64,000 nucleotides of DNA from a virus (IMGVR_UViG_3300040801_002714:20436-84435), one strand, 5' to 3'. Numbered from the stretch's first letter, positions 16,285 through 44,800 are shown. The notes: a model not told the origin generated them from the letters alone. Numbers and translations are program-made.

Positions 16285-17031
16285 ATGTCTCTTACTTTTA
16301 CTGGAAAAACTACACTTACTGGAAAAACAACACAGAGCCCTTCGGCTACTGATCCACTTATCAGTAACGTGACATCTATTGTAAAATTTCAGTCTTACCC
16401 AGGGAACACTACGTTTCAAGATAGTATTACTGATGCAGTATGGACCGGGCAAGACCAAGCTGAAATTTCAGACGTCGAAAGTAAGTTTGGAGGAAGGTCC
16501 GGAGTTACTACTGGTACTGCCACTGACGAATGGACAACACCTTATGTAAGCGGCCCATATAACTTAGCAGACAGTGATTTTTGTGTAGAGGGATGGATTT
16601 TCCCTCAGACTTCAGGTAGCACCGGACATTTGATTGGACAATGGCAAACTGCCGCTAACTTCGGTTGGAACATAAGTTATAATGATGTTTCCCAAACATA
16701 TGTAGTCGAATGGTCAACCGATGGAAATTTCTCAGCACCTAGATCGATAACTGGCACATCGAGTCTTATCAATCGAGACGAATGGACACACCTTGCGTGG
16801 GTCAGGAACGGAGCAACGGGAACTATGTATGTTAATGGAGTTGCAGATTCGACTACTATTACGTTCAGTACTGATGTTATCTTTAACAGTACTTCCGATC
16901 CACACTTAGCAGGTAGTTCGGGCCAGGGCGATTATTTTCTGGGATACATGGATGATTGGAGGGTCACGATAGGTGACCCTCGCTACATCACAAACTTTAC
17001 TCCGCCGACTCAGTCGTTTCCGGTTCGATAA
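16285..17031 (+). CDS. concanavalin A-like/LamG-domain protein, paralog of the previous gene
   Basis: 248 aa; similar N-terminus (M-x-L-x-F-x-GKT-x-L-x-G); EWTHLAWVRNG ... YMDDWRVT; 3' end overlaps the clpA 3' end by 35 nt, convergently. Confidence 0.55.
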   Translation: MSLTFTGKTTLTGKTTQSPSATDPLISNVTSIVKFQSYPGNTTFQDSITDAVWTGQDQAEISDVESKFGGRSGVTTGTATDEWTTPYVSGPYNLADSDFCVEGWIFPQTSGSTGHLIGQWQTAANFGWNISYNDVSQTYVVEWSTDGNFSAPRSITGTSSLINRDEWTHLAWVRNGATGTMYVNGVADSTTITFSTDVIFNSTSDPHLAGSSGQGDYFLGYMDDWRVTIGDPRYITNFTPPTQSFPVR

Positions 17032-23743: not shown

Positions 23744-24178
23744 TTATTCACCTTTCAGTCGTGCAAACACTAACTCTTCGGTTGCCTTTTTCAAACGATA
23801 ATCGTGCCATTGATTTATTCTTGCCTGTCTTCGCTCGATCTCTTTTTGTATCTTACTGTGTTTGCGCTTTCCTGCCCATATTTCTCTATACCAGCGGATA
23901 GCAAGATGCCGATGAAGATTAGCCAGTAATTGCTCGCGAGCAAAATCCATGGTCTTAACGATATCTTCTTCGTAGCAGTGTTCAAAAGATTGTGTATGAT
24001 AAGGAACTTTCGTACGATGTGGTTCGTTTTGCCAATTCCCACGACGATGCCTTCTTCTGGGACCTAGGTCACTTATGTTGATTACGACGTAAGGGACTTT
24101 ATTCCAGAATACTTTGCCGGTGCCACTGCCTCTTTGGTACACGTTATACATTGGCTGGTAATTATTTCTCGTTGCCAA
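23744..24178 (-). CDS. paralog family A member 4
   Basis: C-terminal [27 protein letters not shown]. Confidence 0.55.
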
Positions 24179-25157
24179 ACGTCTGGTTAACCTGATTGTT
24201 GACTCTTACAAAAGTCGTGCACTTGGGCAAATCTTTCAGATTACGAGCACCAACATATGTACATGCACTTCGTAACCCTCCGAGAATATCTCGCAGAGTA
24301 TTAGCGAGCGGACCACGACTAGGAACAGATACAGTCTTTCCTTCGCTTGCTCTGTATTCAGCAACACCACCTGAATACTTGCCCATTGCAGTGTCGGAGC
24401 TCATGCCATAGAATTCTGTTCCGGTTTCATCGTGGCCAGCAAGCATTCCGCCCAACATTACAAAGTCGGCACCTGCGCCAAACGCTTTTGCAACATCACC
24501 TGGGCAAGTGCATCCACCGTCAGCAATAATATGGCCGCCGAGTCCGTGTGCAGCATCAGCACACTCTATCACAGCAGAAAGTTGTGGATAGCCAACTCCG
24601 GTTTTAACGCGGGTTGTACAAACACTTCCGGGACCAATGCCAACCTTAACAACGTCTGCGCCAGCAAGTATTAGTTCCTGCGTCATATCTGCTGTGACTA
24701 CGTTTCCAGCAATGATAACTTTATCTTCCCATTCGTTGCGAACTCTTCTTACCATGTCGCTAAACACTTCCGAGTAGCCGTTGGCAACGTCTAGGCAAAT
24801 ATATTCGATATCGGAGTTTGCTTCTAAGATGCTGTACAGTTTTGTAATATCATCTTTAAGAATACCACTGGAAATAGCAACATTCGATGAGAACATTGCC
24901 TTCTTCCATTGTTCAGGACTGTAGTGTTTGTGCATACAAGTGAACATTCTGTACTGGCTCATAAGTTTGTGAACCTCGAATGTTCCGACCGTGTCCATGT
25001 TTGCAGTCATAATAGGAACACCGTGGTATTCTACGTCTGCATGTTTGAACTTATAGGTCTTGTGTAGGTCCACATCCTTTCTAGAGCCAAGGGTGCTACG
25101 CTTGGGGCGGATGAGCACATCGGAGTAATCTAGCTTTACCGAATCTTCTATCTGCAT
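24162..25157 (-). CDS. guaC: GMP reductase
   Basis: 331 aa, collinear with E. coli GuaC ([66 protein letters not shown]). Confidence 0.92.
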
Positions 25158-28096: not shown

Positions 28097-28621
28097 CTAT
28101 TTTAAAAATTCTTCTATCGGCAAATCATATTTAATGCTGTCGATTTTATGAATGCCGATCTTATATAATATGTATGAGGACACACTTGATCCTCTTCCTA
28201 CTCCCCAAACTGTGCCATTCTCTCGAAAATGGTCAACAAGAAAAATCAATGCACGTAGTACGTCAATTAATCCACGCTCTTCGTACATCATGTATTCAAC
28301 ACAGACTCTTTCTCGTTCTGTGTCGTTGCTGCATCGTTCTAGTACAAATTCTAAAACGTCGATAGTCTTGTATTTTTCGTCAATATGCCAGGTGTTGGCG
28401 TTTTCTTCGTGAAACTGTTCAACTGTGCCTGAGTACCCCGGCTTCGATAAACTGCTAGGATGGTGCAGAACTTCTTCAGCAGAAGAATTGTATATATCCC
28501 GCTCTGCATCATCCTCAATGCACACACCTTCTACACTCTTGCCATTCAGCAATAGCTGCACAGCTTGCTCTGTAGTAAGAATGCTTTGGCTGTATTCGTT
28601 TAAACGGTTTTTGGTTTCCAT
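28097..28621 (-). CDS. DnaE (Pol III alpha) palm-fragment-like protein
   Basis: C-terminal LIFLVDHFRENGTVWGVGRGSSVSSYILYKIGIHKIDSIKYDLPIEEFLK matches the Pol III alpha segment ...GPGRGSAAGSLVAY.LGIT..DPL..DLLFERFL that precedes the catalytic PDFD.DF; the ORF stops before the catalytic aspartates. Confidence 0.5.
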   Translation of the reverse strand: METKNRLNEYSQSILTTEQAVQLLLNGKSVEGVCIEDDAERDIYNSSAEEVLHHPSSLSKPGYSGTVEQFHEENANTWHIDEKYKTIDVLEFVLERCSNDTERERVCVEYMMYEERGLIDVLRALIFLVDHFRENGTVWGVGRGSSVSSYILYKIGIHKIDSIKYDLPIEEFLK

Positions 28622-29557: not shown

Positions 29558-30006
29558 TACTTGCCGTCGTCCTTTTCTTGATTGGCAGTAAAGGTATCTC
29601 CGAGCAATTTGTGAATGTAATCAGTGCGGTGTAGTTCATCAGTCAAATCACCGATAGTAGGACTTGGACTGCCTGTGATTGTTCCACTGGTTGTGTATGG
29701 ACTAACGGTATTCCAATCGATAGTACTGTTATCATTGTAGTACTTTCCGGGACCATACCAGTTGTTTCTGTTGATGTTTCTTTTTTCTAGATCAACTTCG
29801 TTGCGAAGCTGTCTGACTTCGTTCCTCAACTGCTGGATCTCGGCGAGCAAGCTAGTTAAAGGGCCTTCCTCGGTTGGTGATTCAGTTAGTGCAACGACGA
29901 TTAAAAGCTCACGCCATGCATTTTTGATATTGTCGCTTTCGCTGGTTAGGATTTTGTCGATCAGTCTGACCGCATCCATTAATTCTTGTTCTTTCATGTG
30001 GGCCAC
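29557..30006 (-). CDS. hypothetical protein
   Basis: 149 aa; heptad-like LRNEVRQLRNEV. Confidence 0.45.
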   Translation of the reverse strand: MAHMKEQELMDAVRLIDKILTSESDNIKNAWRELLIVVALTESPTEEGPLTSLLAEIQQLRNEVRQLRNEVDLEKRNINRNNWYGPGKYYNDNSTIDWNTVSPYTTSGTITGSPSPTIGDLTDELHRTDYIHKLLGDTFTANQEKDDGK

Positions 30007-30055
30007 CTCCTTGCATATTTATTGTGTTTTTTAGCAGGCCCGCTAATATTGTGAT

Positions 30056-30523
30056 CTAGTTTACGTAGCAATCACCTAGGAAAAATACCAATTTAGGTTT
30101 ATATCTGTGTATCAATTCCTGATGCCGATCTCGGCTTATCACAAGCGGACCGTCAAAGATAAAGAACTCAATGCCACCTTTCAAAGTGAAATATGTTCGT
30201 GACTCGGGTGATATGAATCTGGAATCACCTCGAATCAACGAAGGAACGTCTGTTATTCTGTCGTGTATCCCAGGCGCTCTTGTTGTTACCAGCCTTCGGT
30301 TTTTCTCTGTTTCAGTAACAATAACACCAGTTGGATATTTTCTAGCAGCCATTATCGCTGCTTGAGTGTGACCCGACTGTCTGGGCATACGTATGGCTAT
30401 GTGGTAAAACCCGTGCCTTTCTTTTTCGAGTTCAGAACCACCCGAAGGAACAAACACGTTATCATGCTGCCAGATTGCGTGTTCAATTGTGTCCAGCAGT
30501 AAGCCAACCGAATCCACGTTCAC
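30056..30523 (-). CDS. hypothetical protein
   Basis: 155-aa ORF. Confidence 0.45.
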   Translation of the reverse strand: MNVDSVGLLLDTIEHAIWQHDNVFVPSGGSELEKERHGFYHIAIRMPRQSGHTQAAIMAARKYPTGVIVTETEKNRRLVTTRAPGIHDRITDVPSLIRGDSRFISPESRTYFTLKGGIEFFIFDGPLVISRDRHQELIHRYKPKLVFFLGDCYVN

Positions 30524-30787
30524 TTAGGAATACTTCTGAATCTCTTCGCGGCTTACTACGTCACCCAGTGATTGAAGCTTGAGTGCGGTGATGTCTTCTT
30601 CCTTGAGGTAGTAAACCTCAGACAGAGTTGCAGCACTGGATCCTTCTCTCACAGACCAGTCCTTGCAGACGAACGTTGACAAAAAGATTCTCCAGCCGCC
30701 GCCTTTAAGACGAACCGGAAGAATCGGTCGAATTTTCTGGTAGGTAGTAACCTGGCGTACTGGCTCACCTGAATCAAACATGTTCAC
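30524..30787 (-). CDS. hypothetical protein
   Basis: 87 aa. Confidence 0.4.
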   Translation of the reverse strand: MNMFDSGEPVRQVTTYQKIRPILPVRLKGGGWRIFLSTFVCKDWSVREGSSAATLSEVYYLKEEDITALKLQSLGDVVSREEIQKYS

Positions 30788-31008
30788 AGTTCCTCTTCGT
30801 CAATTTCTAAATCGTCGAGATCGTCACGGGTAATTCCGTAACGCTCACGAATGTCTTGGATGTGTTGTGCAATCGCAACATCACCTTCATAACTGTTGGT
30901 CACGTAAAACATCGCGCCTAGGTCAGAAGGAACTTCGTCTGGTGTCTGAGCCGGAGCGAAGCTGAGAAGAAATTTCAAGTCTGCTTGTAGTTGTTCTGTG
31001 TCCATCAA
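30784..31008 (-). CDS. hypothetical acidic protein
   Basis: 74 aa. Confidence 0.4.
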   Translation of the reverse strand: MMDTEQLQADLKFLLSFAPAQTPDEVPSDLGAMFYVTNSYEGDVAIAQHIQDIRERYGITRDDLDDLEIDEEEL

Positions 31009-31241
31009 TACTCTTTCTTTTTCAGTTTGACGTTGGGGTTGCGTATATACTTCTGCTCACAAAATAGCTTCTTTGCTTCGTGCGAGCAATAGCGTGGGGT
31101 GTTTCCTGTCGGCGTGCAACTGTCCACAAATGCTTGCAGCTTTTTGTGGTTCTCTTCAGGGCACTCACTGACCAGCACATATGGATCGTCGCTACATGCA
31201 CTGGTCAGTAAAAGCACTAAAATCAGGGTAAAAATACGCAT
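31005..31241 (-). CDS. small lipoprotein
   Basis: Signal peptide MRIFTLILVLLLTSAC with lipobox LTSAC; 78 aa. Confidence 0.55.
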   Translation of the reverse strand: MRIFTLILVLLLTSACSDDPYVLVSECPEENHKKLQAFVDSCTPTGNTPRYCSHEAKKLFCEQKYIRNPNVKLKKKEY

Positions 31242-31249
31242 AATCAGTC

Positions 31250-31278
31250 ACAAAATAGCGGGGTTTTACCCCCGCTAT
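31250..31278 (-). terminator. rho-independent terminator after the SPFH gene
   Basis: ATAGCGGGG-TTTTA-CCCCGCTAT, a perfect 9-bp stem, followed by a T-run on the minus strand. Confidence 0.65.
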
Positions 31279-31289
31279 TCTCAGGTCAG

Positions 31290-32699
31290 TTACTTACCTT
31301 GTCCGGTAATAGTAGTGTCCACGTTGAGCTGGCGAGCCAGGTTCAGGCTCATCAGCTGGTTCAGCGTCTGCATCTCAGTATTGGCGCCAGTCGGTACGTC
31401 GCCTCCACCATTGCCACCGCCCAGTACTGTTACGTTGGTCGGCACCGCACGTTTCGCAGATGCTTCAGCCCACACTTCTTGTGCACGGACCCATGCATCC
31501 AATTTCTGCTGGAGCGCGCCGTCACCTTCAATACGTGCTTCACGCTCGTATTTGTCAGCGTCAGCCAGAACCTCTTTGGACTGTGCAATCAGTCTATCAC
31601 GTTCCAGCTGAATAGCAGCAGCCTCACGTTGAATCTCCGCCTGCTCTTTCACACGCTCGGCTTCGATTAGTGCCAGAGCCTTTTCAGTCTCTGCTTCGGT
31701 GGTGCGCTTGATCTGAGCTTTCTTGACCTTGGCCTGTTCTTCAGCAATCTCGCGATCACCTCGCACAATAGCCAGTTGCTTCTGCTCTTCTTCCTGGATA
31801 CGCTGTTCACGTGCCACCGAACGATCCGCAGATGCTTTCTGTTGCATCTCCATACGCTGGATAAACGCATGGTTCGGAGTAAAGTCCGTGATCTTCGCGT
31901 CCACTACCTGGATACCAAAGCGCTGGTAGTTATGACTACGAGTCTTGAATGACCCGTCTTCGTTCATCAGCTTGGTAACACGGAAGTAAGTTTGCTCCTG
32001 GTCTCCGTACTCTTCTTGGTCAGTGCCTTTGCTAGCATCAGCACTTGCAGTACGCGGGGTACTTGCGTCTGCGCGAATCTCTTCACGCTGCACAATAAAG
32101 ATACCATTGCGCATCTGGTAGTCGTAGTCCAGCTGGAAGTCGTTACGCTTACCGTTAAAGTAATCTTCTGCACTCATCAATGAGGAGCTTGCAGTGATTA
32201 CCTGTTCCACAGTGGGAATCAGTTCGGTGCGCAGCAGGTTATCCGGAGTACGATATTCCTCTGCCAGAGCCAGGAATGTTTCGGGGTCGTCAGGCAGACG
32301 GAAACGAGTAGTCTGTTTGACTTTACCATCTACCCTGTCCAACATACGAATGGTATGTGGGGGCAGAATTGAAGCCGAGCTCTCCTCACCTTCTTCGTCG
32401 ACACGAACAGTATGAGCAACACTCATTGCCTTGCGCCAGGGCACAACAGTACCGAACAACTTGAGCTTCCAGCCCGGACTGTTGTAGCCGACCACTTCAC
32501 CTGTAATCAGTCGTACTTGGTAATTGTAGCCCGGGTCGGCATAAAAGAATGCACCGGTCCAGCCGCCGCCAAGGACCATAGCAAAACCGAGGATACCGAC
32601 AAGAGCGCTTGCACCACTTCGCACACTCTCAGGCAAGAATCGCCTTCCGATCGCGAAGTAACCTACAAGGATTATCAATCCCAAAATAATCAAGAACAT
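31290..32699 (-). CDS. SPFH/band-7 (prohibitin/HflKC-like) membrane protein
   Basis: N-terminal TM helix, SPFH core, long Glu/Lys/Arg/Ala/Gln coiled coil (QKQLAIVRGDREIAEEQAKVKKAQI...); 469 aa. Confidence 0.75.
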   Translation of the reverse strand: MFLIILGLIILVGYFAIGRRFLPESVRSGASALVGILGFAMVLGGGWTGAFFYADPGYNYQVRLITGEVVGYNSPGWKLKLFGTVVPWRKAMSVAHTVRVDEEGEESSASILPPHTIRMLDRVDGKVKQTTRFRLPDDPETFLALAEEYRTPDNLLRTELIPTVEQVITASSSLMSAEDYFNGKRNDFQLDYDYQMRNGIFIVQREEIRADASTPRTASADASKGTDQEEYGDQEQTYFRVTKLMNEDGSFKTRSHNYQRFGIQVVDAKITDFTPNHAFIQRMEMQQKASADRSVAREQRIQEEEQKQLAIVRGDREIAEEQAKVKKAQIKRTTEAETEKALALIEAERVKEQAEIQREAAAIQLERDRLIAQSKEVLADADKYEREARIEGDGALQQKLDAWVRAQEVWAEASAKRAVPTNVTVLGGGNGGGDVPTGANTEMQTLNQLMSLNLARQLNVDTTITGQGK

Positions 32700-32767
32700 A
32701 GTTCTCTCCTAGTTGATATGACTCTTGCGAGTCGGTTAAATGCACAACATGTGCATGTTGAAAATCT

Positions 32768-33322
32768 TTACTCCAGCGTCCACAGCACCTTGTGCATGTC
32801 GGTAACTGTTTCGTCGATAATGGTCTCGATGATTTTCCAGTTACCTCGTGCAAGTCCTGCACCAATCAACGGAAAGTGCAGAACGGATTCGACAGCTTGG
32901 TTTTCTGCTCCAACACGATTGATTTCCGTGAAGCAGCGAACCACAGCTTCGTAATCGACATAACGTTCAGCATTCGGATCGTCTGGGTGTCCTGCATAGT
33001 AGCGTTGGGTCATTGCGTTCACAACAACTAAGGGATTCCTGGGCAGGCTATCTTCTTGACCAAAGAGATCGACACCAGGGCCGCCGTTCACGTAGACGAA
33101 CTGAGTCGAACCGAGCTCAAGCTGGTGTGTCTGTTGCACACCGTTGTAATCGTCCCAGTAACCTTCTTCCCAGATGTTGTGGTAGGTCTCAAACACGACC
33201 GGCCACTTGTCTCGAATCAGCTTGGCAATTCCGGAACCCATCTTGCCCTGACAGTTGCAACCGTGAACTAGAAATCCAGAGGTTGCACCAGTTAACATAT
33301 CTCCGACACGATGTTCAATCAT
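32768..33322 (-). CDS. macro domain protein, TARG1/OARD1/DarG-like
   Basis: VHGCNCQGKMGSGIAKL and HFPLIGAGLARGNW match the TARG1-type macro signature; the ORF track extends to 33415, but the Met at 33322 avoids overlap with the pilin-like gene. Confidence 0.75.
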   Translation of the reverse strand: MIEHRVGDMLTGATSGFLVHGCNCQGKMGSGIAKLIRDKWPVVFETYHNIWEEGYWDDYNGVQQTHQLELGSTQFVYVNGGPGVDLFGQEDSLPRNPLVVVNAMTQRYYAGHPDDPNAERYVDYEAVVRCFTEINRVGAENQAVESVLHFPLIGAGLARGNWKIIETIIDETVTDMHKVLWTLE

Positions 33323-33323
33323 A

Positions 33324-33680
33324 TTACTTGTCCGTTGCGACGGGTGATTGGCAGTAGATTCTGTAGTGCTTGGTATCTGTTTCGAACTCATAGTATGAGC
33401 CGGTCGAACAAGCAACTACCATTTCTATCTGTACAGCAAAGCGCGATACATCTGTGCTGTTGGCCGATACCCTGTTCAGGTGATCTTCTTGCACGACGCG
33501 ACCAGGGCCCGGTGCAGCTTCGATCCCAGTATAAGGCACAGACTCTGTTCTCGGTCGAGATTCTTCCCCGGATAGCACACCGGAAATAAACGGGGCGATT
33601 ATCGTGGCAAAAATGCCGATAATCGCAATCACAATGATCAGTTCAATCAGCGTGAATCCTTTATTCGCGAAGGTCTTCAT
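33324..33680 (-). CDS. type IV pilin-like protein (prepilin-type N-terminus)
   Basis: MKTFANKG|FTLIELIIVIAIIGIFATI is a class III signal with conserved F+1 and E+5; C-terminal Cys pair (ACSTG...YRIYCQS) typical of a pilin D-region; 118 aa. Confidence 0.7.
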   Translation of the reverse strand: MKTFANKGFTLIELIIVIAIIGIFATIIAPFISGVLSGEESRPRTESVPYTGIEAAPGPGRVVQEDHLNRVSANSTDVSRFAVQIEMVVACSTGSYYEFETDTKHYRIYCQSPVATDK

Positions 33681-33894
33681 AGTCTATGCCCATAATCTTG
33701 AGGATGGATGAAACAGTTAGGAGGCATCCTATCAGTAGAGCAATACCAATGCCGCCTGTGATTAGATACAGTATCGGGTCATATCCGGAAAAGCCGAAGT
33801 AGATGGATACAACGGCTAGCATGCCTGACACAAATGCCTGCATAACCAGCATCGCTGCTTTCCGTCCGATCTCTACTTCTTCGTCATAACCCAT
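33661..33894 (-). CDS. small two-helix membrane protein
   Basis: 77 aa, two hydrophobic helices. Confidence 0.45.
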   Translation of the reverse strand: MGYDEEVEIGRKAAMLVMQAFVSGMLAVVSIYFGFSGYDPILYLITGGIGIALLIGCLLTVSSILKIMGIDYEDLRE

Positions 33895-33909
33895 GCAGCT
33901 ATTACAACA

Positions 33910-34344
33910 TTAATTGGTAATATTGTCAACTAATTCTTCAACTGCATAATCGTCGGGTAAACCGCGAATGAACACAGTGAATTTTGTATTGGATGGATAT
34001 ACTGGCTTCAGTTTCATACCTTCGTCGCCCAGTGCTAATCGCATAGCAGTGAGATCGAATTCATCATGAAAACCAAAATAGCTATCTCGAATGCTTAGGT
34101 GTGCACGGTATCTGCTTCTGTTGCTCAGCATCTTTTGCCAATCTTTTTGGCTGAGATATACAGTGCTAGGGCAAGGTGTGTAGCACCAGGTTCCCTGTGA
34201 GTGACGTCGACACCATTGTCGTACTTCCATGAACCTCACGCATTGTGAAATTGAGTTATAGTCTTCGACTATATCCCTTATCCTCACAAATTTAAATCCA
34301 CAGCCGGAAGGAACAAACTGCCCGGCCATTAGTGCGTCGGCCAT
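33910..34344 (-). CDS. hypothetical protein
   Basis: 144-aa ORF. Confidence 0.45.
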   Translation of the reverse strand: MADALMAGQFVPSGCGFKFVRIRDIVEDYNSISQCVRFMEVRQWCRRHSQGTWCYTPCPSTVYLSQKDWQKMLSNRSRYRAHLSIRDSYFGFHDEFDLTAMRLALGDEGMKLKPVYPSNTKFTVFIRGLPDDYAVEELVDNITN

Positions 34345-34775
34345 TATTTAATCACTTTGTGCCAGTGTGCAAGAAGACTACGGACCAACTTGGTCATTAA
34401 TAGATTCTGTTGTTCTCTGTCGCTTTCTTCGAACTCATCATCGTATGCAGTGTATCGAACAAGGTCGCGAGCAGACGACAGATGTGATGCTCCGTCTGTG
34501 GTAATAAAGGACAGCAATACCGTGTGGTCTTTGTCTTGTAGTTTTTCAATCAGCTTATCGTTTTCATCGAATTCTACAATGTGCAGAGATACAATCTGCT
34601 GCAAAGGAATGATGTTGTGATCGACATCATATATGAACGGACTGATCCACAAATCTCTGTATCTGATCGGCTCAACTCCCAAATGAACATGATCGGCATA
34701 CAGTGAGTCAATTAGATCCAGCGCTTTCATCCGTGGCCTCTCGTTAGCGCCCAATCTTGTAGAACTTGGTAACAT
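34344..34775 (-). CDS. hypothetical protein
   Basis: 143-aa ORF. Confidence 0.45.
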   Translation of the reverse strand: MLPSSTRLGANERPRMKALDLIDSLYADHVHLGVEPIRYRDLWISPFIYDVDHNIIPLQQIVSLHIVEFDENDKLIEKLQDKDHTVLLSFITTDGASHLSSARDLVRYTAYDDEFEESDREQQNLLMTKLVRSLLAHWHKVIK

Positions 34776-35104
34776 TCTTTCATCATAAATTCTGATTTTT
34801 CATTTTCGTTCCAGCTTTCGAATGATTTTTCTAGCTGATTGTATCCTATTATGAAACTGTTTTGCTTGATAGAAACTTTATGTGTTCTTCCGCTATCTGT
34901 AGTTAGAGTGATCAGTGACGCATGGTCACCCTTTAGTTTTTCTGCAACCTGTTCTTCGGATTTTCCATCGATAAAATCCAAGAAGATTGATTCTACTTTA
35001 TCGAGGGCAACAAAATGACCTTCGGTCGAAATTAATGTTGTGTACGTTGGGGTGTTTTTATTAATGCTCGACCGAATGATTCTTTCTTTTTGGTTGCGAT
35101 CCAT
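34727..35104 (-). CDS. hypothetical protein
   Basis: 125-aa ORF. Confidence 0.4.
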   Translation of the reverse strand: MDRNQKERIIRSSINKNTPTYTTLISTEGHFVALDKVESIFLDFIDGKSEEQVAEKLKGDHASLITLTTDSGRTHKVSIKQNSFIIGYNQLEKSFESWNENEKSEFMMKECYQVLQDWALTRGHG

Positions 35105-35108
35105 TGCT

Positions 35109-35489
35109 TCACCTATGCAGACCTTTAAGCTTCAGTGCTGTCATCGTTTCTCGTGTGAAGCATAATCTTCCACCAGGTATGTATCTGTCTATCTTGACAC
35201 CGAGCATGTCTTCCAGTATAGCGCCGGCCGCCACATCATCGTGAGAACGATCTTTTATAACCGTGTACCCTTGCTCGAAAGGAACAAAGATATAATCGGC
35301 GTAGTAACTCACACGCTGAGTTGTCATACCAGGTGAAGTATATATCAGTGCTCGATGAATGTCCGATCCGATAATATACTTCTCGGGAACCTTTCTTGCA
35401 AATTCTTCAAAGTGCCCTTGAATAATATCGTCTATGGGATCTCGGTTCAGCATAGAACCTCCGAGCGAGAACTTGACAGTTCGAGTCAC
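35109..35489 (-). CDS. hypothetical protein
   Basis: 126-aa ORF. Confidence 0.45.
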   Translation of the reverse strand: MTRTVKFSLGGSMLNRDPIDDIIQGHFEEFARKVPEKYIIGSDIHRALIYTSPGMTTQRVSYYADYIFVPFEQGYTVIKDRSHDDVAAGAILEDMLGVKIDRYIPGGRLCFTRETMTALKLKGLHR

Positions 35490-35791
35490 ATCAGCGCAAG
35501 TGCAGACACCAGGCTCTCGTCGAACTTGGTGTTGTACACAACAACACGAATCGAAGGAGTCTTGCCTTTTCGAAGCTGTTTGAGCACAGGACGAGGACAG
35601 GTCCAGTTTTCTTTGCCGTGGCCGGCATAGAAATTCATGTGCTTGATGAATTTCCTGAAGTGAGGCTCGTCACGAATAGTAATCTGAAATTCGCAGTGAA
35701 TTGATTCGCCTGACATCTCGTTGTCCTTGTCGTCTGTGTTACTGGTTATGTTCATTACACTGCTGTGTAGAATTCTGTCAACTAAAATCAA
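35486..35791 (-). CDS. hypothetical protein
   Basis: 101-aa ORF. Confidence 0.4.
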   Translation of the reverse strand: MILVDRILHSSVMNITSNTDDKDNEMSGESIHCEFQITIRDEPHFRKFIKHMNFYAGHGKENWTCPRPVLKQLRKGKTPSIRVVVYNTKFDESLVSALALM

Positions 35792-36299
35792 ACTTTAGGT
35801 TATATCGTGTTTTCATCTCCAACATTGCTTCTGCGTTGCCTATTGCATCGTCAACTGGGTGATGAGTGTGCTTGGTCTTGCGATATTTGCGGAAATTCGC
35901 TCTCTGATTACGCTTAATGCCCTTATATAAGCTGTTGATATTATGGCTGGACCAACCGAATGGGTTCTGACCCAAAAATCGGTGAAAATAGTAGTTGATA
36001 AACGCAAAATCGAAGCCGTTGTTGTCTGCCCAGAATATGGGCCTGCCTCGATTGTTGTTTAGCAGCCACTCTGCAAAGTCCTTCATGGTCTTCTCTGACT
36101 CAGGAAAAGTCATGCACTCTTCGCGACTGTGCCCGCTTACTGCTAGTGCTTCAGGAATCCATTGATCGGATATTGGCAAGCATTGCCCATAGAAAGTTCT
36201 GTTCAGTCCTGGCTCCACGATCACAGCGCCGAAGCTTACCATGCTGTATAATCCTGGCACAGGGCCATCTGCTTCTATGTCTACCACAATGTTAGTCAT
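35778..36299 (-). CDS. DEDDh 3'-5' exonuclease (DnaQ/RNase T/DexA-like)
   Basis: Exo I VVDIEADG; Exo III HHPVDDAIGNAEAM (H-x4-D). Confidence 0.7.
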   Translation of the reverse strand: MTNIVVDIEADGPVPGLYSMVSFGAVIVEPGLNRTFYGQCLPISDQWIPEALAVSGHSREECMTFPESEKTMKDFAEWLLNNNRGRPIFWADNNGFDFAFINYYFHRFLGQNPFGWSSHNINSLYKGIKRNQRANFRKYRKTKHTHHPVDDAIGNAEAMLEMKTRYNLKFDFS

Positions 36300-36762
36300 C
36301 GAGTTTCTCCTCCGGAATCATGGATCCGTGTGCCACTGGTCGGTAAGGAGCAACGCTAACATGCGATCCTGACTTTTCCCAGGTAAACAGTCCTTCGACA
36401 CACCCGTCTCGAAATTGGTAGTGTCCGTCACGCATCATTTCGAACATGATGAAAAAATTGCTTATGTTGCAGTAAACTTCTTTGGCTGTTACACCTTTCA
36501 GTTTATCAAATGTGTTTTCTTCGTCGTCTGCATCTTTTTCAAGGGTGAGCCAAACTGATGTGCTGGTCGAAGTCATGAATACTTCGCTGTACCTCAGCCT
36601 TGCATGGAAGACTGGTATGTGTAACTTTTCGTGTCTCTTGGCAAACTCTTTTTGTTCGCCCCAGCCCTGGTCGCCGCTCATGATGAATCCGTCGTCATCG
36701 ACCGCTACAGTCCAGTTTACTGTCTTAGGCAGATGTCCTACCACATTCATAGTTGCCACCAC
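36292..36762 (-). CDS. hypothetical protein
   Basis: 156-aa ORF. Confidence 0.45.
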   Translation of the reverse strand: MVATMNVVGHLPKTVNWTVAVDDDGFIMSGDQGWGEQKEFAKRHEKLHIPVFHARLRYSEVFMTSTSTSVWLTLEKDADDEENTFDKLKGVTAKEVYCNISNFFIMFEMMRDGHYQFRDGCVEGLFTWEKSGSHVSVAPYRPVAHGSMIPEEKLDD

Positions 36763-37088
36763 TCTTTTTTATAATCAGGCAGATCTTCTTTTATCCTCCA
36801 GTGGTCTTCCTCGATGCCGCCGTATTTGAGTTCTCTAGCAACAGCATCTTGAGGAGTAGTTCGGTGTTGATAAAAATCATGTAAGTCTTCGGGGTTTCTC
36901 CACAGGTAGGAATATTTTTGAAGCCAGACCACAGTCTCTTCGTTGATACGAACAGGGAAAAGAGCAAAACCGGTTTGCCATCCCATGCGTCGAGCAACAC
37001 GAGTAGTATGCTTCTCACGCTGCCTTTCGATCTTTCTTCTTTCCTTGTTTCTGTCTCGGACTCTAGAAGAAGCAAAATTGATGATCAT
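36747..37088 (-). CDS. hypothetical basic protein
   Basis: 113-aa ORF. Confidence 0.4.
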   Translation of the reverse strand: MIINFASSRVRDRNKERRKIERQREKHTTRVARRMGWQTGFALFPVRINEETVVWLQKYSYLWRNPEDLHDFYQHRTTPQDAVARELKYGGIEEDHWRIKEDLPDYKKEWWQL

Positions 37089-37501
37089 TCTTCAATCTCC
37101 CTTTTATAGGTGTAACACTGTATTTCGTATTCTCGGTCCTGACGCTGAAAAATGTAAACACCATCTTTGTTGCACTTTTTCCAGATAGTTCTTTCCCAGT
37201 CTACCTGCACTACAACTTCGCCACTGGCATTAACTGCCTGTCGTGTTATGGGTCGCGTCGCTGGATCGGGAGGACAAGACCTTTCGCCGTTGTCTAATAT
37301 GAAACAGCCATTGGCGTCTTTGGGGTAGGTCGCAAGTCGACGAAGTTCGGATTTGGTTTTAGGAGAATTAGTTTTAGGAACATACGAATCGTCGCTCGAA
37401 CAAGCAGACAGAAACAAGCTACCAAGCGTCAGTGCCGTAACGAAGTTCGCACCACTTTTCCAGAATGTACCTTTCGACCTCATCTTCAATACTCTCGTCA
37501 A
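37085..37501 (-). CDS. lipoprotein
   Basis: ...FVTALTLGSLFLSACSSDD with lipobox LSAC; start probably the internal Met at about 37483. Confidence 0.5.
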   Translation of the reverse strand: MTRVLKMRSKGTFWKSGANFVTALTLGSLFLSACSSDDSYVPKTNSPKTKSELRRLATYPKDANGCFILDNGERSCPPDPATRPITRQAVNASGEVVVQVDWERTIWKKCNKDGVYIFQRQDREYEIQCYTYKREIEE

Positions 37502-37745
37502 AATGTCGTCTTTTGTGTTTGTCTACACCAGCACTGTCTATATTAAACAAATCCGACAAATCAATCAAGTGTATCTGATGCTCTGTTCTCAAGTATAGAG
37601 GGTTTACAGGTGTGCTAACACTAGAGGATAGTTCTGTCGCTGTGCCCAGCTCATCACGAAATTTTTCTTTGCGTATGGACAGCACATCTTTGAGACAAAC
37701 ATAGTCTCCTTCGACGCTTTTGAATACTAGCGAAACTGGCTTCAT
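37419..37745 (-). CDS. hypothetical protein
   Basis: 108 aa; 3' end overlaps the lipoprotein ORF in another frame. Confidence 0.35.
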   Translation of the reverse strand: MKPVSLVFKSVEGDYVCLKDVLSIRKEKFRDELGTATELSSSVSTPVNPLYLRTEHQIHLIDLSDLFNIDSAGVDKHKRRHFDESIEDEVERYILEKWCELRYGTDAW

Positions 37746-38743
37746 TTTTTCATCTCCATTAACGCTGCTTTTAGTCTTTTTGTAGATTTTTCAGTGCCCG
37801 AAAGTACTTCGACCATAGCCTCTTGTTCAAGCCAGTCTTTAGTTTCCGGTAGCAACGATAGTGTTACTTTACGTGGGCGAACAATTCGGATAAATTCCTT
37901 GCTGCCCACGAACAATATCCATTGCTTTGCATTAAGCTTAGACGCTCTCATTTGGTCTATGGTAATCATGTTCATGAGCTCTGGCCTCTGTTTCATTAAA
38001 TTCCGAACTCCGCTTGCATTGCTAATGTTGCTGATGTTCTCTAAACACAACGGAGCAAAATAAGCAAAATCAAATTTAAGCAGGTGATGCCAGCCGTATT
38101 CGTCTACCTTGTTAAGCGGTAGATCAAACTTCTTGAAGAAACTAGGTTTTCTCGACGCAATTGTAAACATGGCCGATTTTGTCATTTTGTTGAAATCTAT
38201 ATGTTTCATCATTTTCTTTTGATGTGAAACAAACAGATCAGCTTTTAAGTGGACCGGCAATTTCGATGGATTGCACGACTCCTCAAATCTAGAAAAGTTG
38301 CTGCGAAGTAACAGAGCACGATCTTCTGCAGCCAGAGCCGCAATGTCAAAATACTGTGGTTCCTTTTTAAACAGTTCTAGCAGTGTGGGATAGTCCAGTG
38401 CTTTCCTTAGTGCTGCTTCTACAGGGTTGTGCTTTCTTTTTCTTATCATTTCGTCTATTCCCTCAGGCGTAATCCACGACTCAAGAGTAAGCGACCAATT
38501 CGACCAAGTCATAGAACGAGGGCGAATAAGAGGGGCCCCAGCCAATGCCAGATCTCTTACTAGGCCATTGTAGGAATGCTGCTTCCTTAGCTTGTGAATA
38601 AACGAAGTGAAAAGAATGGTTTCTCTTCTCTTCTGATTATTGCGAAAGCGAAGCGTAAATCCATGTAGCCAAGGATGGTACTTCGATCTCTCGATTATTG
38701 CAATAGCTAGGTGCTTGTCTTCGTCGGTAGTGTGTGTTTTCAT
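37742..38743 (-). CDS. hypothetical protein
   Basis: 333-aa ORF. Confidence 0.5.
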   Translation of the reverse strand: MKTHTTDEDKHLAIAIIERSKYHPWLHGFTLRFRNNQKRRETILFTSFIHKLRKQHSYNGLVRDLALAGAPLIRPRSMTWSNWSLTLESWITPEGIDEMIRKRKHNPVEAALRKALDYPTLLELFKKEPQYFDIAALAAEDRALLLRSNFSRFEESCNPSKLPVHLKADLFVSHQKKMMKHIDFNKMTKSAMFTIASRKPSFFKKFDLPLNKVDEYGWHHLLKFDFAYFAPLCLENISNISNASGVRNLMKQRPELMNMITIDQMRASKLNAKQWILFVGSKEFIRIVRPRKVTLSLLPETKDWLEQEAMVEVLSGTEKSTKRLKAALMEMKK

Positions 38744-38819: not shown

Positions 38820-40313
38820 CTAAATAATTCCAGCGTTCTTTCGTACTTCATCCATGGTGGTCTCTTTGACCATCTCGCCGTTTTCGTACACGGTTTCGAG
38901 TGCATATTCCCAGCCGAACTTACTTACGTACTCTTGAGCAACTTCTGTGGTCATGGTTTCGTATGCACCGGTTTGAGTGTTATACATCAGCTCAAGTCGG
39001 CCCTTTTTGCTGGCCTTGAAGCTGCTGGCCTGCTCGTCCTTTTCCCAGGTATTGGGATCGTACACAGCAGGTGCCTTGAACACTTCAACCCAATCATCGC
39101 CGTCCAGTACTGCACAGCACTTGACCGCAAACTTCTGAGTGTCACGGTTGTTCTTTTGCAGAAGTCCACCGCCCATGCCGAACGCGATGTTCGAGATGCT
39201 CCACTTTTCGTCGACCAAGCTCATCACGATTGCGTAGACATCGTGGATGTCAATGCCATCGCCCTGGATCACGCGCACATTGTTCAGCACCTTGTAGCCT
39301 TTGCTGTTCACGGTGTGCCCAAACACCTTGTCCAGTTCGCGAACAACCTGCACCGGAGTAGCAATCGGATCGCCTGAGTCCGGACGGAATACCCAGGTTG
39401 CACCACTGTCTTCCAGACGCTGCTTGAACTTGGGTGCAATCTCGCGGATGAATCGCATCCAGTCGTAGCTGTCGATCACTGTTGCAAAAATTGCACCATC
39501 TTTTGCGTAAGCATCGAACATCTGTTCCAGCAGTTGAGGTTCGCCGTCCGGGCCGTGCATAGTAGTGGTGCTGTGCTCAGAAGCCGGAATGGAGAATGCG
39601 CTCATCTCGCAGTTGTATGCAAGGTTTGCTGCCAGCACCGCAATGGTAGTGTCACTGCCCAGGAAGCTGACCAGGTGACCTGCGCCAGCAAATGCAGCAC
39701 CTTCACTTGAAGAAATACCACGTGAGCCGAAGTCGTGTAGCTTGAACGGAATCTCCGCGTAAGGATCGTCTGCAGAACGACGCAGACCTTCCAGGATGAT
39801 TTCGCGGATCGCGTAGCTCTCTGTTGCCACAGTGGTCGGGCTCCACACACGAAGCAGCTTGGCCTCGAAGTAGCTCACGATGCTGAACACACGAGGATCG
39901 TCTACTGTGCTTTCGATTGTGAACAGCACATTCTTGACCGGAATGATGCTGCCTTCTTTTGCAGCGCGAACACGGATCGGCCATTTGCCGTCGTAGTCCT
40001 CAACCACAGCACGGAGCGCAATTTCCAGATCGTCAGTGACGTTCTCCATCAGGTGTGCTCGCTGGAACTGGATGATGTTGTCCACCTGCGGGTGTGTCAG
40101 GCGCTGCAAGAAAAATTCCTTGAGCAGCATCTGCATACCAAACCACAGAACGAAATCATGTTTTCCGCCTCGGCTCTCGCCGTAGGAGATCATGCGCTTC
40201 GCACCCTTGAGGTACTGCGGAATGTGGGTCAGTTTATAACTGTCAGTATCACCTGCGATACCGTAGTTTTCACGAATTGCGGCAAGAATGCCATTTGAGT
40301 TTACAGTTGTCAT
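38820..40313 (-). CDS. nadV: nicotinamide phosphoribosyltransferase (Nampt)
   Basis: 497 aa; N-terminal DTDSYKLTHIPQY and overall collinearity with Nampt; AGAGGAG RBS. Confidence 0.9.
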   Translation of the reverse strand: MTTVNSNGILAAIRENYGIAGDTDSYKLTHIPQYLKGAKRMISYGESRGGKHDFVLWFGMQMLLKEFFLQRLTHPQVDNIIQFQRAHLMENVTDDLEIALRAVVEDYDGKWPIRVRAAKEGSIIPVKNVLFTIESTVDDPRVFSIVSYFEAKLLRVWSPTTVATESYAIREIILEGLRRSADDPYAEIPFKLHDFGSRGISSSEGAAFAGAGHLVSFLGSDTTIAVLAANLAYNCEMSAFSIPASEHSTTTMHGPDGEPQLLEQMFDAYAKDGAIFATVIDSYDWMRFIREIAPKFKQRLEDSGATWVFRPDSGDPIATPVQVVRELDKVFGHTVNSKGYKVLNNVRVIQGDGIDIHDVYAIVMSLVDEKWSISNIAFGMGGGLLQKNNRDTQKFAVKCCAVLDGDDWVEVFKAPAVYDPNTWEKDEQASSFKASKKGRLELMYNTQTGAYETMTTEVAQEYVSKFGWEYALETVYENGEMVKETTMDEVRKNAGII

Positions 40314-40489: not shown

Positions 40490-40939
40490 TCAGCCATAGT
40501 TGAATGACCAGTACAGTTCTTCTGTGAGAGCGATATCTTCTTCGCTCAGGTTTTCGCTAGCGAACTTTTCGATCGGGTCGAAATCGCTACCACTGGTGTG
40601 GTGCATGTCAAGGACGTTGCCAAGCTCGTAACCAGCGAAGCGGAACCAGTTACGTATGTCGTGAATTACCTGCGTCTGTGTGTCCAGGTCCTCGATCTCA
40701 TAGGAACTGTATCCTATTGCCATCGGGTCACCGCAGCACACATCGTGTATGCCATACTTCTCTTCGCTCTTCCGAATGAAGTCATCGAGATCTGGATCTT
40801 CGCCGTATGCTAGATCGCGTAGCCGAAGCGCTTCCTCGCGATTCTTGGCACCGATCGTAAAGCAAACAGTTCGCACGTTAATCTGTTCGCTGTCTTCCGA
40901 ATCGGAAGTGAACTCAAAGACGAAACCGAACTTATGCAT
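40490..40939 (-). CDS. hypothetical acidic protein
   Basis: The ORF track extends to 41008; the internal Met (MHKFGFVFEF) avoids a long overlap with alkB. Confidence 0.45.
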   Translation of the reverse strand: MHKFGFVFEFTSDSEDSEQINVRTVCFTIGAKNREEALRLRDLAYGEDPDLDDFIRKSEEKYGIHDVCCGDPMAIGYSSYEIEDLDTQTQVIHDIRNWFRFAGYELGNVLDMHHTSGSDFDPIEKFASENLSEEDIALTEELYWSFNYG

Positions 40940-41552
40940 CGTGTGCCTCCATGTTAACACCGACGTTGTAGTGGTAGTAATTTTTGCTGCCTGCAATATT
41001 CTGCGCATTGCGGAAAGTTAGGTTGATGCGCGGATCAACTGCCTTTGCAGTTTTGGGTACATGGTGTTCCCAATCCGCCTGGCACCGACCGTGCATGACT
41101 AACAGGTCACCGTGGCCCAGTTGAAATTCTTGCTTCTCGCGTGTTTCCTTGTTGCGAAGCAGGAAGCGTCGTTCGCCGCCTAGGCTGATGCTAGCAATTG
41201 TGGGCTCTGGACCCAGAAACTTTTCATCATCGGAATGCCAGCTGATGCTGTCGCGACCATCGCGGTAGTAGCTCATCAGTACATAGTTGAATGCTGCGCT
41301 GATCTGCTCCGTGACTGAGTCCATAAGCTCTTGCAGGTAGTCCGGGATAGCGCGAGGATCAACTCCGCTCACTGTCTCAGGATTGTCGTCGTGGTAACCG
41401 TAGCAGTTAGTTAGCCTGGGCGTGAACACAGTGCCCCATGGCTTCTGATAACGAACATGGTTCCAGGGAGTATCGTGCTTGAGCAAGCGGAACAGACGAG
41501 TTGCTGCTTCGCTCTGGATAAATCCTGGTATGTAAGTTACAATATCCTGCAT
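40932..41552 (-). CDS. alkB: AlkB-family 2OG-Fe(II) dioxygenase
   Basis: WHSDDE; IASISLG; LGHGDLLVMHG..Q..WEHHVPK; RINLTFR; all collinear with E. coli AlkB. Confidence 0.85.
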   Translation of the reverse strand: MQDIVTYIPGFIQSEAATRLFRLLKHDTPWNHVRYQKPWGTVFTPRLTNCYGYHDDNPETVSGVDPRAIPDYLQELMDSVTEQISAAFNYVLMSYYRDGRDSISWHSDDEKFLGPEPTIASISLGGERRFLLRNKETREKQEFQLGHGDLLVMHGRCQADWEHHVPKTAKAVDPRINLTFRNAQNIAGSKNYYHYNVGVNMEAHDA

Positions 41553-43538: not shown

Positions 43539-43724
43539 TTAGCCTCCGGTGACGTCCAAAAATTTGCCACATTTGGGGCAGTGCAGGCTACGAAAGGCTT
43601 TTGCTCTTTCGTTAACAACCGCCTTGCACAATTTGTCAGGGCTCTTTTTGCAGCCAGGCATAATGACTTTGAGTCTGCCTCCGGGTGCGCCAAGTCGTGT
43701 GCGAACCATGTTTCGTGAGTTCAT
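43539..43724 (-). CDS. small zinc-ribbon protein
   Basis: CKKSPDKLC...CPKCGKF; 61 aa. Confidence 0.4.
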   Translation of the reverse strand: MNSRNMVRTRLGAPGGRLKVIMPGCKKSPDKLCKAVVNERAKAFRSLHCPKCGKFLDVTGG

Positions 43725-44800
43725 TACTTTGCCCTCGCTGTCAACATGGATATTATACTGTGGTGATCTTCAAAAATCAACTCCGGCATATCCAGTGCAG
43801 TACTGATTGGGAACCACTTAGCTTCGGCTGCATCATCTGCACCTTTGACCACAGGCAGCTTGCCGTCGTCGGGTCCAGGCAGTTCAATGAGGAATGCTTG
43901 CGTGATTGTTCTACCACGCAGGCTTCTGTTGGGATGATCAAACACCTGGCTGTGAGTGATGTTTGCGTCTAGGACCTTGGGCGGAACTTTCAGCTTGGTC
44001 TCTTCGCGCAGCTCGCGCAAGCAACTCACACGCCCAGTTTCGTTCGGGTCAATGTAACCACCAGGCAGTGCCCACAGACCTTTGCCCGGCGCAGCCTTGC
44101 GTCGAATCAGCAACACATGACCGCCTTGCAGGACAACGGCGTCTACAGTATTCAGCGTGACAGGGTAAGGACTGTCTTTCCACTGTTCTTGATACTTGCG
44201 TATGAACTGATACTCTTCGACAATTCGTTTCCACTCGCCAGTGTCGTATCTATTCTCCAAGATCCAGTCAAACACTACCCTGGGCATTACACTGCGCACA
44301 AACGTGATCTTGTTTTCAAACATCAGCTGGCGAATCTGGGTAGCGTCGATCGGGTGCTCGCCCACTTCGATGAACTTGCCCGAGTCCAGAAAATCGTAGC
44401 TCGGAAACCAACGAAGGTAAAACGTGCTTTCGTCCTTTTCGTGCCCGACGATAACAACACTGTCCTCTAGGTTGTTGAAACCTACACAACGAGTGATTGC
44501 AGTTTGTACCTGGGTGACCCACTTGTTGTCTTCGTAGAGAAAGTCACGAGCAGGGCGGATGTGAAGGCCCAAATTCGGATTGAACCTGTCCATGTGATCA
44601 CGAACAGCGATCTCAATCATCTGCTTGCGTTCATCAAACGTAAATGGATTCTTTGGGGTGCGTGGTTGATCTGCGGATCCTACCAGTACCAAGACTTCGT
44701 CTGCTTGGCTGTAGGCTTTTTCGATCAAGGACATGTGTCCTAGGTGGAAAGGCTGGAATCGTCCAATAACGACCGCCAGACTGTATGGCTTTTGCGACAT
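43724..44800 (-). CDS. nadM: bifunctional NMN adenylyltransferase/Nudix hydrolase (NadM/NatV-like)
   Basis: N-terminal VIGRFQPFHLGH (archaeal-type NMNAT HxGH); C-terminal Nudix box GLWALPGGYIDPNETGRVSCLRELREETKL. Confidence 0.9.
   Translation of the reverse strand: MSQKPYSLAVVIGRFQPFHLGHMSLIEKAYSQADEVLVLVGSADQPRTPKNPFTFDERKQMIEIAVRDHMDRFNPNLGLHIRPARDFLYEDNKWVTQVQTAITRCVGFNNLEDSVVIVGHEKDESTFYLRWFPSYDFLDSGKFIEVGEHPIDATQIRQLMFENKITFVRSVMPRVVFDWILENRYDTGEWKRIVEEYQFIRKYQEQWKDSPYPVTLNTVDAVVLQGGHVLLIRRKAAPGKGLWALPGGYIDPNETGRVSCLRELREETKLKVPPKVLDANITHSQVFDHPNRSLRGRTITQAFLIELPGPDDGKLPVVKGADDAAEAKWFPISTALDMPELIFEDHHSIISMLTARAK

Follow-up and report, generated by a model that had tools for sequence, protein, structure and literature searches.

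A prepilin-type gene was recognized on the minus strand, at positions 33324..33680, of a viral DNA stretch of 64,000 nucleotides (IMGVR_UViG_3300040801_002714:20436-84435), the whole of which is called here the window. Its product, termed the mini-pilin, is a precursor of 118 amino acids with a predicted mature protein of 110 amino acids, and the gene is supported by its open reading frame (ORF), by profile hidden Markov models (HMMs), by codon bias and by the gene call of the Joint Genome Institute (JGI). We infer that the protein might be a solitary, non-canonical mini-pilin which is processed by the prepilin peptidase PilD of the host and acts on the type IV filament machinery of that host, exclusion being its most likely purpose; this functional reading is offered tentatively, as a possibility of nearly even weight.

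Coding status and prepilin signal of the mini-pilin

The minus-strand ORF of 118 codons begins at its first ATG, and since an in-frame stop codon is found two codons upstream, the start is pinned and the leader is exactly MKTFANKG; the complete product reads MKTFANKG followed by FTLIELIIVIAIIGIFATIIAPFISGVLSGEESRPRTESVPYTGIEAAPGPGRVVQEDHLNRVSANSTDVSRFAVQIEMVVACSTGSYYEFETDTKHYRIYCQSPVATDK. The codon-usage log-odds of this frame were positive in the N-terminal as well as in the C-terminal half, as in the neighbouring genes, and those of the antisense ORF at 33311-33589 were negative. The same gene had been called by JGI as a 'prepilin-type N-terminal cleavage/methylation domain-containing protein'. 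The mini-pilin ORF is a genuine phage gene. The counts of promoter-like and terminator-like sites around it were not above those of shuffled sequence, thus co-transcription with the neighbouring genes is no more than likely. A spurious or decaying ORF without any function was also considered: the Shine-Dalgarno sequence is weak and the protein has no homologue but itself, which would suit this explanation. Nevertheless it is hardly credible, since curated HMMs match the motif significantly, both halves of the gene have in-frame codon bias, the genes are tightly packed and overlap as in operons, and many analogous genes are present in other viruses.

The leader peptide (residues 1-8, 33657..33680, minus strand), as read from the sequence, comprises eight residues with positive charges at K2 and K7 and ends in Gly-1, and cleavage by PilD is predicted between Gly8 and Phe9. 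It is followed by FTLIELIIVIAIIGIFATIIAPFISG, with Gly-1, Phe+1 and Glu+5, and the mature chain has also Gly14 and Pro22, both in register and at positions typical of type IVa pilins. The arrangement expected of a class III signal, namely Phe+1 and Glu+5 continued by a hydrophobic helix, was found in FTLIELIIVIAIIGIFATIIAPF. The N_methyl family of Pfam (PF07963) matched the mini-pilin with E=3.7e-8 and 33.1 bits (cut-off 21.2), and TIGR02532 with E=4.4e-9 and 35.8 bits (cut-off 16.3); across the six frames of the 64-kb window the prepilin motif occurs in the mini-pilin only. Judged by these two profiles (PF07963, TIGR02532), the mini-pilin belongs to the prepilin-signal class. An earlier note on this DNA had described a textbook prepilin-peptidase site with Gly-1, Phe+1 and Glu+5, and this description was borne out both by the sequence and by the two profiles, which scored above their cut-offs.

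The hydrophobic helix corresponding to alpha1-N covers residues 9-36 (33573..33656, minus strand), according to the AlphaFold2 model, the Kyte-Doolittle plot and the alignment to pilin N-termini. AlphaFold2 placed a helix at residues 11-36 with a predicted local distance difference test score (pLDDT) of 84-89, and the Kyte-Doolittle maximum of the transmembrane (TM) segment in a 19-mer frame was 2.99. The best PDB sequence matches of the mini-pilin were pilin N-termini (E=6e-5 to 0.08): Geobacter PilA-N stood at the top (6e-5), followed by Vibrio PilA, MshA and PAK pilin, and GspG was weaker. Through the same N-terminus six or seven PHROG families were reached (13280, 10597, 11263, 27437, 11596 and 3433), one of which, 3433, is annotated 'pilin'. 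As a separate matter, a signal-anchor-release (SAR) domain was ruled out, because the TM segment is too hydrophobic for it.

The linker, the Cys-pair domain and the search for a pilin head

Beyond the helix the mini-pilin departs from the pilin pattern. Residues 37-76 (33453..33572, minus strand) form a linker rich in Pro, Gly, Ser, Glu and Arg, which is predicted to be disordered by AlphaFold2 and stands in the place of the canonical alpha1-C helix; the pLDDT was below 50 within residues 38-78 (38-47 and 49-78). A small orphan C-terminal domain follows (residues 77-118, 33327..33452, minus strand), modelled by AlphaFold2 as a helix (77-93) plus a hairpin (96-109) with a pLDDT of about 70. It holds the only two Cys residues of the protein, Cys91 (33408-33410) and Cys110 (33351-33353), which are separated by 18 residues, and Cys110 stands 8 residues from the C-terminus. 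The pair is placed like that of a pilin D-region, the bond itself being predicted at most. The model does not contain the continuous alpha1 helix of about 50 residues with a beta-sheet head which is expected of a pilin, as its helix stops at residue 36. It should be emphasized that AlphaFold2 was run on a single sequence and the mean pLDDT was 60.9, which means low confidence, therefore the absence of a pilin fold in this model is a weak negative. Foldseek comparison of the model with BFVD and PDB returned nothing at E <= 0.001 and was uninformative. The region after the membrane helix is thus predicted, on a low-confidence model, to be something other than an amphipathic alpha1-C with a beta-sheet head.

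The sequence searches gave a similar division of the protein. The family matches in Pfam, NCBIfam and PHROGs span only residues about 5-40. Against GspG the mini-pilin scored 25.9 bits (cut-off 88.85), against GspH 26.6 (80), against GspJ 12.8 (64.85) and against GspI 12.5 (44.35), and the scores with PilA_Myxo (29.4, cut-off 400), PRK10574 (21.7, cut-off 138) and ComGC (20.4, cut-off 75) came from alignments confined to residues 6-35. When 1.84 billion cluster representatives were searched exhaustively with phmmer, 107 matches at E <= 1e-3 were obtained; those other than the mini-pilin itself scored 36-52 bits and nearly all were N-terminal alignments, the few longer ones being to unrelated small pilins of Gram-positive type which have no Cys or motif in common with it. 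A homologue of the C-terminal part was not found among these 1.84 billion representative proteins. The word search of 5.8 billion proteins returned the mini-pilin itself plus a single protein of 127 aa (P0002), which is 39% identical over 79 aa, a likeness that is essentially N-terminal. No match was obtained by tblastn against 50,697 GenBank phages, and no related locus was found in IMG/VR when it was searched with the protein. Recent capture of a host pilin was ruled out, as none of the searches made gave a full-length homologue.

Since all of the family matches are N-terminal, the mini-pilin is pilin-like only at its processing and assembly end, and on sequence grounds it is not demonstrably a pilin or a pseudopilin. 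The wording 'pilin-like' of the earlier note is therefore right for the N-terminal 30-40 residues and does not extend to the remainder, where the linker is predicted to be disordered. Its suggestion of a Cys pair mimicking the D-region stands as far as Cys91 and Cys110 do lie near the C-terminus; a D-region-like disulfide or a pilin head is unsupported, nothing being matched past residue ~48. The comparison with pilin and pseudopilin HMMs, which had been named there as a test, gave a divided answer too: the N-terminal methylation motif was matched and the full-length models stayed below their cut-offs, so that the outcome named there as a refutation was found by half.

Proposed role and comparison with known systems

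According to the reading we favour, the precursor would be inserted through Sec/SRP, then the host prepilin peptidase (PilD/GspO) would cut off MKTFANKG after Gly8 and would N-methylate Phe1 of the mature protein (Phe9 of the precursor). A polytopic protein with at least 5 TM segments, which could be a candidate A24 peptidase, was not found in the window by hydropathy, so processing would fall to the host. Genes for pilus or type II secretion system (T2SS) assembly were likewise absent among the ~66 window ORFs scanned against Pfam and PHROGs, a set comprising all but about 11 of the window ORFs that reach 120 aa. The mature product would be a bitopic inner-membrane protein with its small C-terminal domain in the periplasm, probably disulfide-bonded. 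Since alpha1-N with Glu5 docks subunits into the assembly platform and the filament core, the mini-pilin would most likely join the pilin pool of the host, where it could serve as a decoy, as a cap or poison subunit, or as a rival substrate for PilD. The outcome would be that type IV pili, MSHA or T2SS filaments are altered or shut down in the infected cell. Type IV pili are receptors of many phages, and they drive motility, adhesion and DNA uptake; the likely gain would be the exclusion of pilus-dependent competitor phages, or the blocking of pilus functions during infection.

In favour of this reading speak the motif with its two profile matches, the coding signal, the phage context, the lack of a peptidase candidate in the window, the solitary state of the gene, its place in a variable slot and its absence from the related SPFH loci, the PHROG families with the same N-terminus, a neighbourhood of early-type and membrane-protein genes, the precedents from other viruses, and the position of an SPFH gene beside a superinfection-exclusion gene in phage PhiSH19 (PMC3220722). 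Several points weigh against it. The full-length pilin and pseudopilin models of NCBIfam remained far under their cut-offs, and past about residue 48 of the mini-pilin there was no profile, PDB-sequence or fold match. Without alpha1-C and a beta-sheet head, a subunit might not pack into a filament, and class III signals also occur on proteins that are not pilins. The presence of PilD, type IV pili or T2SS in the host is an assumption. Furthermore, the recurrent linkage of short viral pilins to SPFH genes, described below, could mean a membrane function apart from pili.

A prepilin gene in a phage is not very unusual. The DNA-pattern scan of IMG/VR with one variant of the motif (GFTLIEL-x-[IVM]-V) gave at least 120 loci and at least 117 prepilin ORFs of 25-389 aa, in which the motif lay nearly always within 20 residues of the start. 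The mature length was 60-125 aa in about 31 of the at least 117 ORFs, most of them with at least two Cys, and two or more Cys were present in about 70% of the sampled viral mini-pilins. Taking a mini-pilin informally as a solitary protein with a mature length of at most ~125 aa, the motif at its start and a divergent C-terminus, the window protein has all of these properties. Among the matches listed, every viral prepilin ORF with a mature length of at most 100 aa (38/38) was present in a single copy in its locus, which fits parasitism of the host machinery better than the building of an own filament. Contigs as long as 358-424 kb carry some of the viral prepilin ORFs (L058, L074, L094), and the protein in L058 is built like that of the window: alpha1-N comes first, then a linker rich in Pro, together with a Cys pair. 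No likeness to the C-terminus of the window protein was seen among the listed IMG/VR prepilin ORFs, and hhalign against the commonest IMG/VR mini-pilin family (alignment A2) aligned only residues 5-34. An 83-aa prepilin-type protein, annotated as hypothetical, was also detected in a cultured T4-like cyanophage, Synechococcus phage BUCT-ZZ01 (ON615601 84785-85036, L151:4995-5246). It reads MRKEKG/FTLIEAM… and has the RC…GKGVxC loop which is conserved in that commonest family.

A precedent in function is P-FimU of the prophages of Pseudomonas F10-like phages (Sztanko et al., Cell Rep 2026, PMC12952977), a protein that takes the place of a minor pilin and thereby blocks phages which bind the pilus tip. 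The mini-pilin resembles it in being phage-encoded, in its prepilin N-terminus, in the proposed use of the type IV pili of the host and in the proposed phage-versus-phage exclusion. However, P-FimU is a full-length FimU homologue with a pilin fold from a temperate phage, whereas only the N-terminal 30-40 residues of the mini-pilin are pilin-like, its C-terminus is an orphan and it comes from a large, apparently lytic phage. Full-length homology to a host pilin, by which proteins of the P-FimU and P-PilA type are recognized, was not found for the mini-pilin in either the 5.8-billion or the 1.84-billion protein set. Virulent phages also encode PilA-like and truncated (~60-residue) PilA proteins (PMC12952977). 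Together with the PHROG families mentioned above these are, like the mini-pilin, short, solitary, prepilin-type proteins of lytic phages with a putative function, but the mini-pilin is longer (110 aa in the mature form), with a disordered linker and a dissimilar Cys-pair domain. In the haloarchaeal SNJ2 provirus the pilins PilA1 and PilA2 are assembled by the host machinery (PMC12426801). The mini-pilin is similar to them as a virus-encoded protein with a class III signal and, presumably, in its reliance on host assembly machinery; the SNJ2 pilins however are archaeal, come from a temperate virus and make up the dominant surface filaments, and there is no sign that the mini-pilin polymerises.

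With the type IVa major pilins (PilA/PilE, Geobacter PilA-N) the mini-pilin has in common the length and charge of the leader, Gly-1, Phe+1, Glu+5, Gly14, Pro22 and the placement of the Cys pair, but it is without an amphipathic alpha1-C, a detectable beta-sheet head and nearby assembly genes. The T2SS pseudopilins GspG and GspH have the same N-terminal cleavage/methylation domain, although the scores were below the cut-offs and the alignments span only residues 7-33 of the mini-pilin. Inhibitors of type IV pili which are not pilins are also made by phages: Tip and Aqs1 are of this kind, the Pf protein is reportedly another (PMC8764522), and T4 Imm and Sp are exclusion proteins. The mini-pilin resembles all of these as a small early or accessory phage protein, and they block superinfection at the envelope, often as membrane proteins. 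In contrast to the mini-pilin they are unrelated in sequence, carry no prepilin signal and target PilB/PilC or the injection machinery instead of mimicking a pilin. By analogy with P-FimU, the PilA-like and truncated PilA proteins and the archaeal provirus pilins, which provide direct precedent, the functional idea appears plausible. The functional interpretation of the earlier note is accordingly reasonable and not new in kind, phage pilin-like proteins being already known.

The SNJ2 precedent (PMC12426801) brings up another explanation, in which the mini-pilin is a functional filament subunit or pilus tip, polymerised by the host machinery, which alters adhesion, motility or receptor display without any inhibition. 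The assembly determinants Glu5, alpha1-N, Gly14 and Pro22 are all present, and very short pilins do form filaments, Geobacter PilA-N being the best PDB match. Nevertheless a disordered linker of 40 residues with a tiny head is unlike the known filament-forming pilins, the gene is an orphan in a variable slot, and long-term modification of the host would be less useful to a phage which looks lytic and large and has no integrase in the ORFs scanned. This explanation is therefore held to be improbable.

Neighbouring genes, linkage to SPFH genes and the source phage

All genes around the mini-pilin are on the minus strand and closely packed. Upstream there is a conserved hypothetical gene of 144 aa (33910..34344) without a family match, whose product is 29% identical to L005:3680-4024 (E=9e-19), L005 being the locus of the closest relative found. 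After a gap of 15 nt comes tm77 (33661..33894), an ORFan of 77 aa with two hydrophobic TM segments, for which no family match and no homologue but itself was obtained. The last 20 nt of tm77 overlap the start of the mini-pilin, which makes translational coupling probable. Downstream, 1 nt from the mini-pilin, the gene of a macro-domain protein was called (32768..33322, 184 aa; Pfam Macro, phrog_335), which is 42% identical to its L005 homologue. The mechanical ORF list gives for it a TTG start (33415) inside the mini-pilin; the likely start is the ATG at 33320-33322, as in the JGI call. Its N-terminus is DarG-like (NCBIfam E=1.8e-6; PADLOC E=9.6e-10), and PADLOC reported no defence-system match apart from this one. 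After a further 68 nt, and 625 bp downstream of the mini-pilin, the gene of an SPFH/Band 7 membrane protein of 469 aa follows on the same strand (31290..32699; Pfam Band_7 E=2.4e-10, phrog_11908 E=6.6e-67). The neighbourhood consists of genes of early or host-takeover type and of membrane proteins, without structural or lysis genes. A virion component was ruled out for the mini-pilin, as the gene lies outside the structural module.

The presence of a small two-TM protein overlapping a membrane protein of type-II topology allows one to think of lysis or its timing, with tm77 as a holin- or antiholin-like protein and the mini-pilin as an i-spanin or antiholin-like partner, and tm77 has a faint match to a holin PHROG (phrog_6995, E=0.45). 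This match is however not significant, and the scanned neighbours of the mini-pilin included neither an endolysin nor an o-spanin lipoprotein nor any other lysis gene. In addition, the periplasmic part is Pro/Gly-rich and predicted to be disordered or beta rather than the coiled coil of an i-spanin, and the hydrophobicity of the TM segment much exceeds that of a SAR domain, thus a role in lysis is very unlikely.

The relatives of the window SPFH gene were gathered (26 from IMG/VR, 80 from metagenomes and 3 from cultured phages) and their flanks of 5-6 kb were examined. Neither a prepilin motif nor a homologue of the mini-pilin or of tm77 was found within 5-6 kb at any of the related SPFH loci (0/109; 29 + 80). 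The closest relative, L005, in which the SPFH protein is 68% identical, keeps the 144-aa gene and the macro gene, and in the slot between them an S8 subtilase replaces tm77 and the mini-pilin. In this locus the S8 subtilisin-like peptidase (L005:4051-5001) is accompanied by an extra JAB/RadC-like gene (L005:5539-5982) between the macro and SPFH genes. As tm77 and the mini-pilin are absent from the relatives and L005 carries a subtilase there, the two genes are a lineage-specific insert in a variable slot; such an insert is typical of accessory or moron genes, and the slot looks like a hot spot of accessory-gene exchange. Five SPFH relatives with 42-46% identity (L164, L177, L184, L186, L209) lie on metagenome contigs of 459-897 kb, which may be huge phages or cellular genomes.

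The SPFH gene is of interest also because similar arrangements recur. In IMG/VR, a sample that may include host DNA and in which ORF calling was crude, an SPFH gene was present in 12/114 listed prepilin-bearing loci (L048, L054, L065, L080, L086, L094, L105, L120, L143, L144, and also L044 and L075), always on the same strand, and 10 were confirmed as Band_7 by Pfam. When pilins with a mature length of at most 100 aa were taken as short, and an SPFH gene was counted if it lay on the same strand no more than 2.5 kb away and Pfam confirmed it as Band_7, such a gene accompanied 9/27 short and 1/72 long pilins among the matches listed (Fisher p=2e-5). After collapsing these listed matches to lineages by C-terminal sequence the figures were 6/20 for short and 1/22 for long pilins (p=0.04). 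The SPFH proteins at these loci belong to several subfamilies with 21-70% identity, one of them being flotillin-like, and small ORFs (~58 aa) with two TM segments often adjoin the short viral pilin and SPFH genes. The window shares this arrangement: a stretch of 2.6 kb holds the mini-pilin, tm77 and SPFH, all on one strand. In the GenBank phages an SPFH gene is a rarity, two subfamilies having been found in 22 and 62 of the 50,697 records. In phage PhiSH19 an SPFH gene adjoins an annotated superinfection-exclusion gene (PMC3220722), and our literature search found no paper connecting SPFH genes with phage pilins.

These observations open a further explanation, by which the mini-pilin would be a membrane-anchored periplasmic partner in a module with the SPFH and two-TM proteins, its prepilin N-terminus being mainly a (possibly cleaved) anchor and the protein having no place in pili. 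Such a module could remodel or protect the inner membrane in infection, for example through membrane integrity, regulation of FtsH or other proteases, or exclusion at the step of DNA entry. The close arrangement of the three genes in the window, the enrichment of Band_7 near short prepilin ORFs among the listed matches, the rarity of SPFH genes in the GenBank phages and the recurrence of small two-TM ORFs beside such genes all speak for it. On the other hand, service as a mere anchor would hardly account for the exact conservation of G/FTLIE, Gly14 and Pro22, and the linkage is one-sided, because SPFH loci are usually without pilins. To the 0/109 loci of the window type can be added the SPFH loci of L120 type in cultured phages, where a prepilin ORF was found in 0/4, and it follows that SPFH does not need a prepilin partner; an obligatory SPFH-pilin pair was consequently ruled out. 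Co-location may also reflect just a common early or membrane gene region. We consider this explanation unlikely, though not negligible.

A more far-reaching proposal would unite both lines. Short phage mini-pilins and SPFH or flotillin-like scaffolds, often with small two-TM proteins, could constitute an unrecognised functional module, in which the PilD-processed alpha1-N targets the platforms of host type IV filaments or the inner-membrane pilin pool, and the SPFH cage sequesters or remodels those sites. Exclusion or host takeover at the level of the envelope would thereby be achieved in a new way, by a system that recurs in unrelated large phages; at present this is a speculative idea to which we give a low probability.

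Regarding its source, the window DNA is that of a phage: a family-B DNA polymerase, a clamp loader, and tail, baseplate and virion proteins are encoded in it. The polymerase shares 40-43% identity with its counterparts in the jumbo phages Phosso, Atu_ph07 and 121Q-like phages, and megablast of the region 30000-38000 gave no match in the GenBank phages, where a close relative was not found. The source is a large uncultured T4-superclade-like phage, apparently lytic; no integrase was present among the window ORFs scanned.

Some further features of the window were recorded. Lipoprotein-like N-termini were seen on two small ORFs, 31005-31241 (…LLLTSAC/SDD) and 37085-37501 (…SLFLSAC/SSDD), so with tm77, the mini-pilin and SPFH the region is enriched in envelope proteins. 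A NAMPT gene (38820-40313) and a cytidylyltransferase-like/NUDIX gene of the NadR-type NMNAT-Nudix kind (43724-44800) are located 3.4 kb apart; this pair, which has the macro-domain gene nearby, resembles the phage pathway of nicotinamide adenine dinucleotide (NAD+) reconstitution against NAD-depleting defences. For an ORF of 174 aa at 28097-28621 the only match (E=1.2e-9) is to a piece of 76 residues from PF07733, the NTPase domain of the bacterial DNA polymerase III alpha, which is odd beside a family-B polymerase. Two adjacent paralogues on the plus strand (14878-16275 and 16285-17031), which are among the very few plus-strand genes of the window, match the baseplate-wedge/virion-structural PHROGs 3545, 24074 and 13163. 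Auxiliary genes code for a Lon-like ATP-dependent protease (phrog_4871; 16997-19267), a GMP reductase/IMPDH-family enzyme (24162-25157), an AlkB-like 2OG-Fe(II) oxygenase (40932-41552) and an RtcB RNA ligase (48989-50224).

The link between SPFH genes and short pilins is seemingly unreported, and through it two kinds of phage membrane proteins that are still poorly understood become open to concrete tests. It was shown only lately that phage pilin mimics can work as anti-phage exclusion devices, and the mini-pilin represents an extreme case, where a phage of large, lytic type retains just the processing and assembly end of a pilin and adds a unique mini-domain to it. Should PilD indeed process the protein, and should pili or T2SS be disturbed by it, the case would demonstrate what small part of a pilin suffices for hijacking this machinery, and the protein could provide a compact tool for blocking it.

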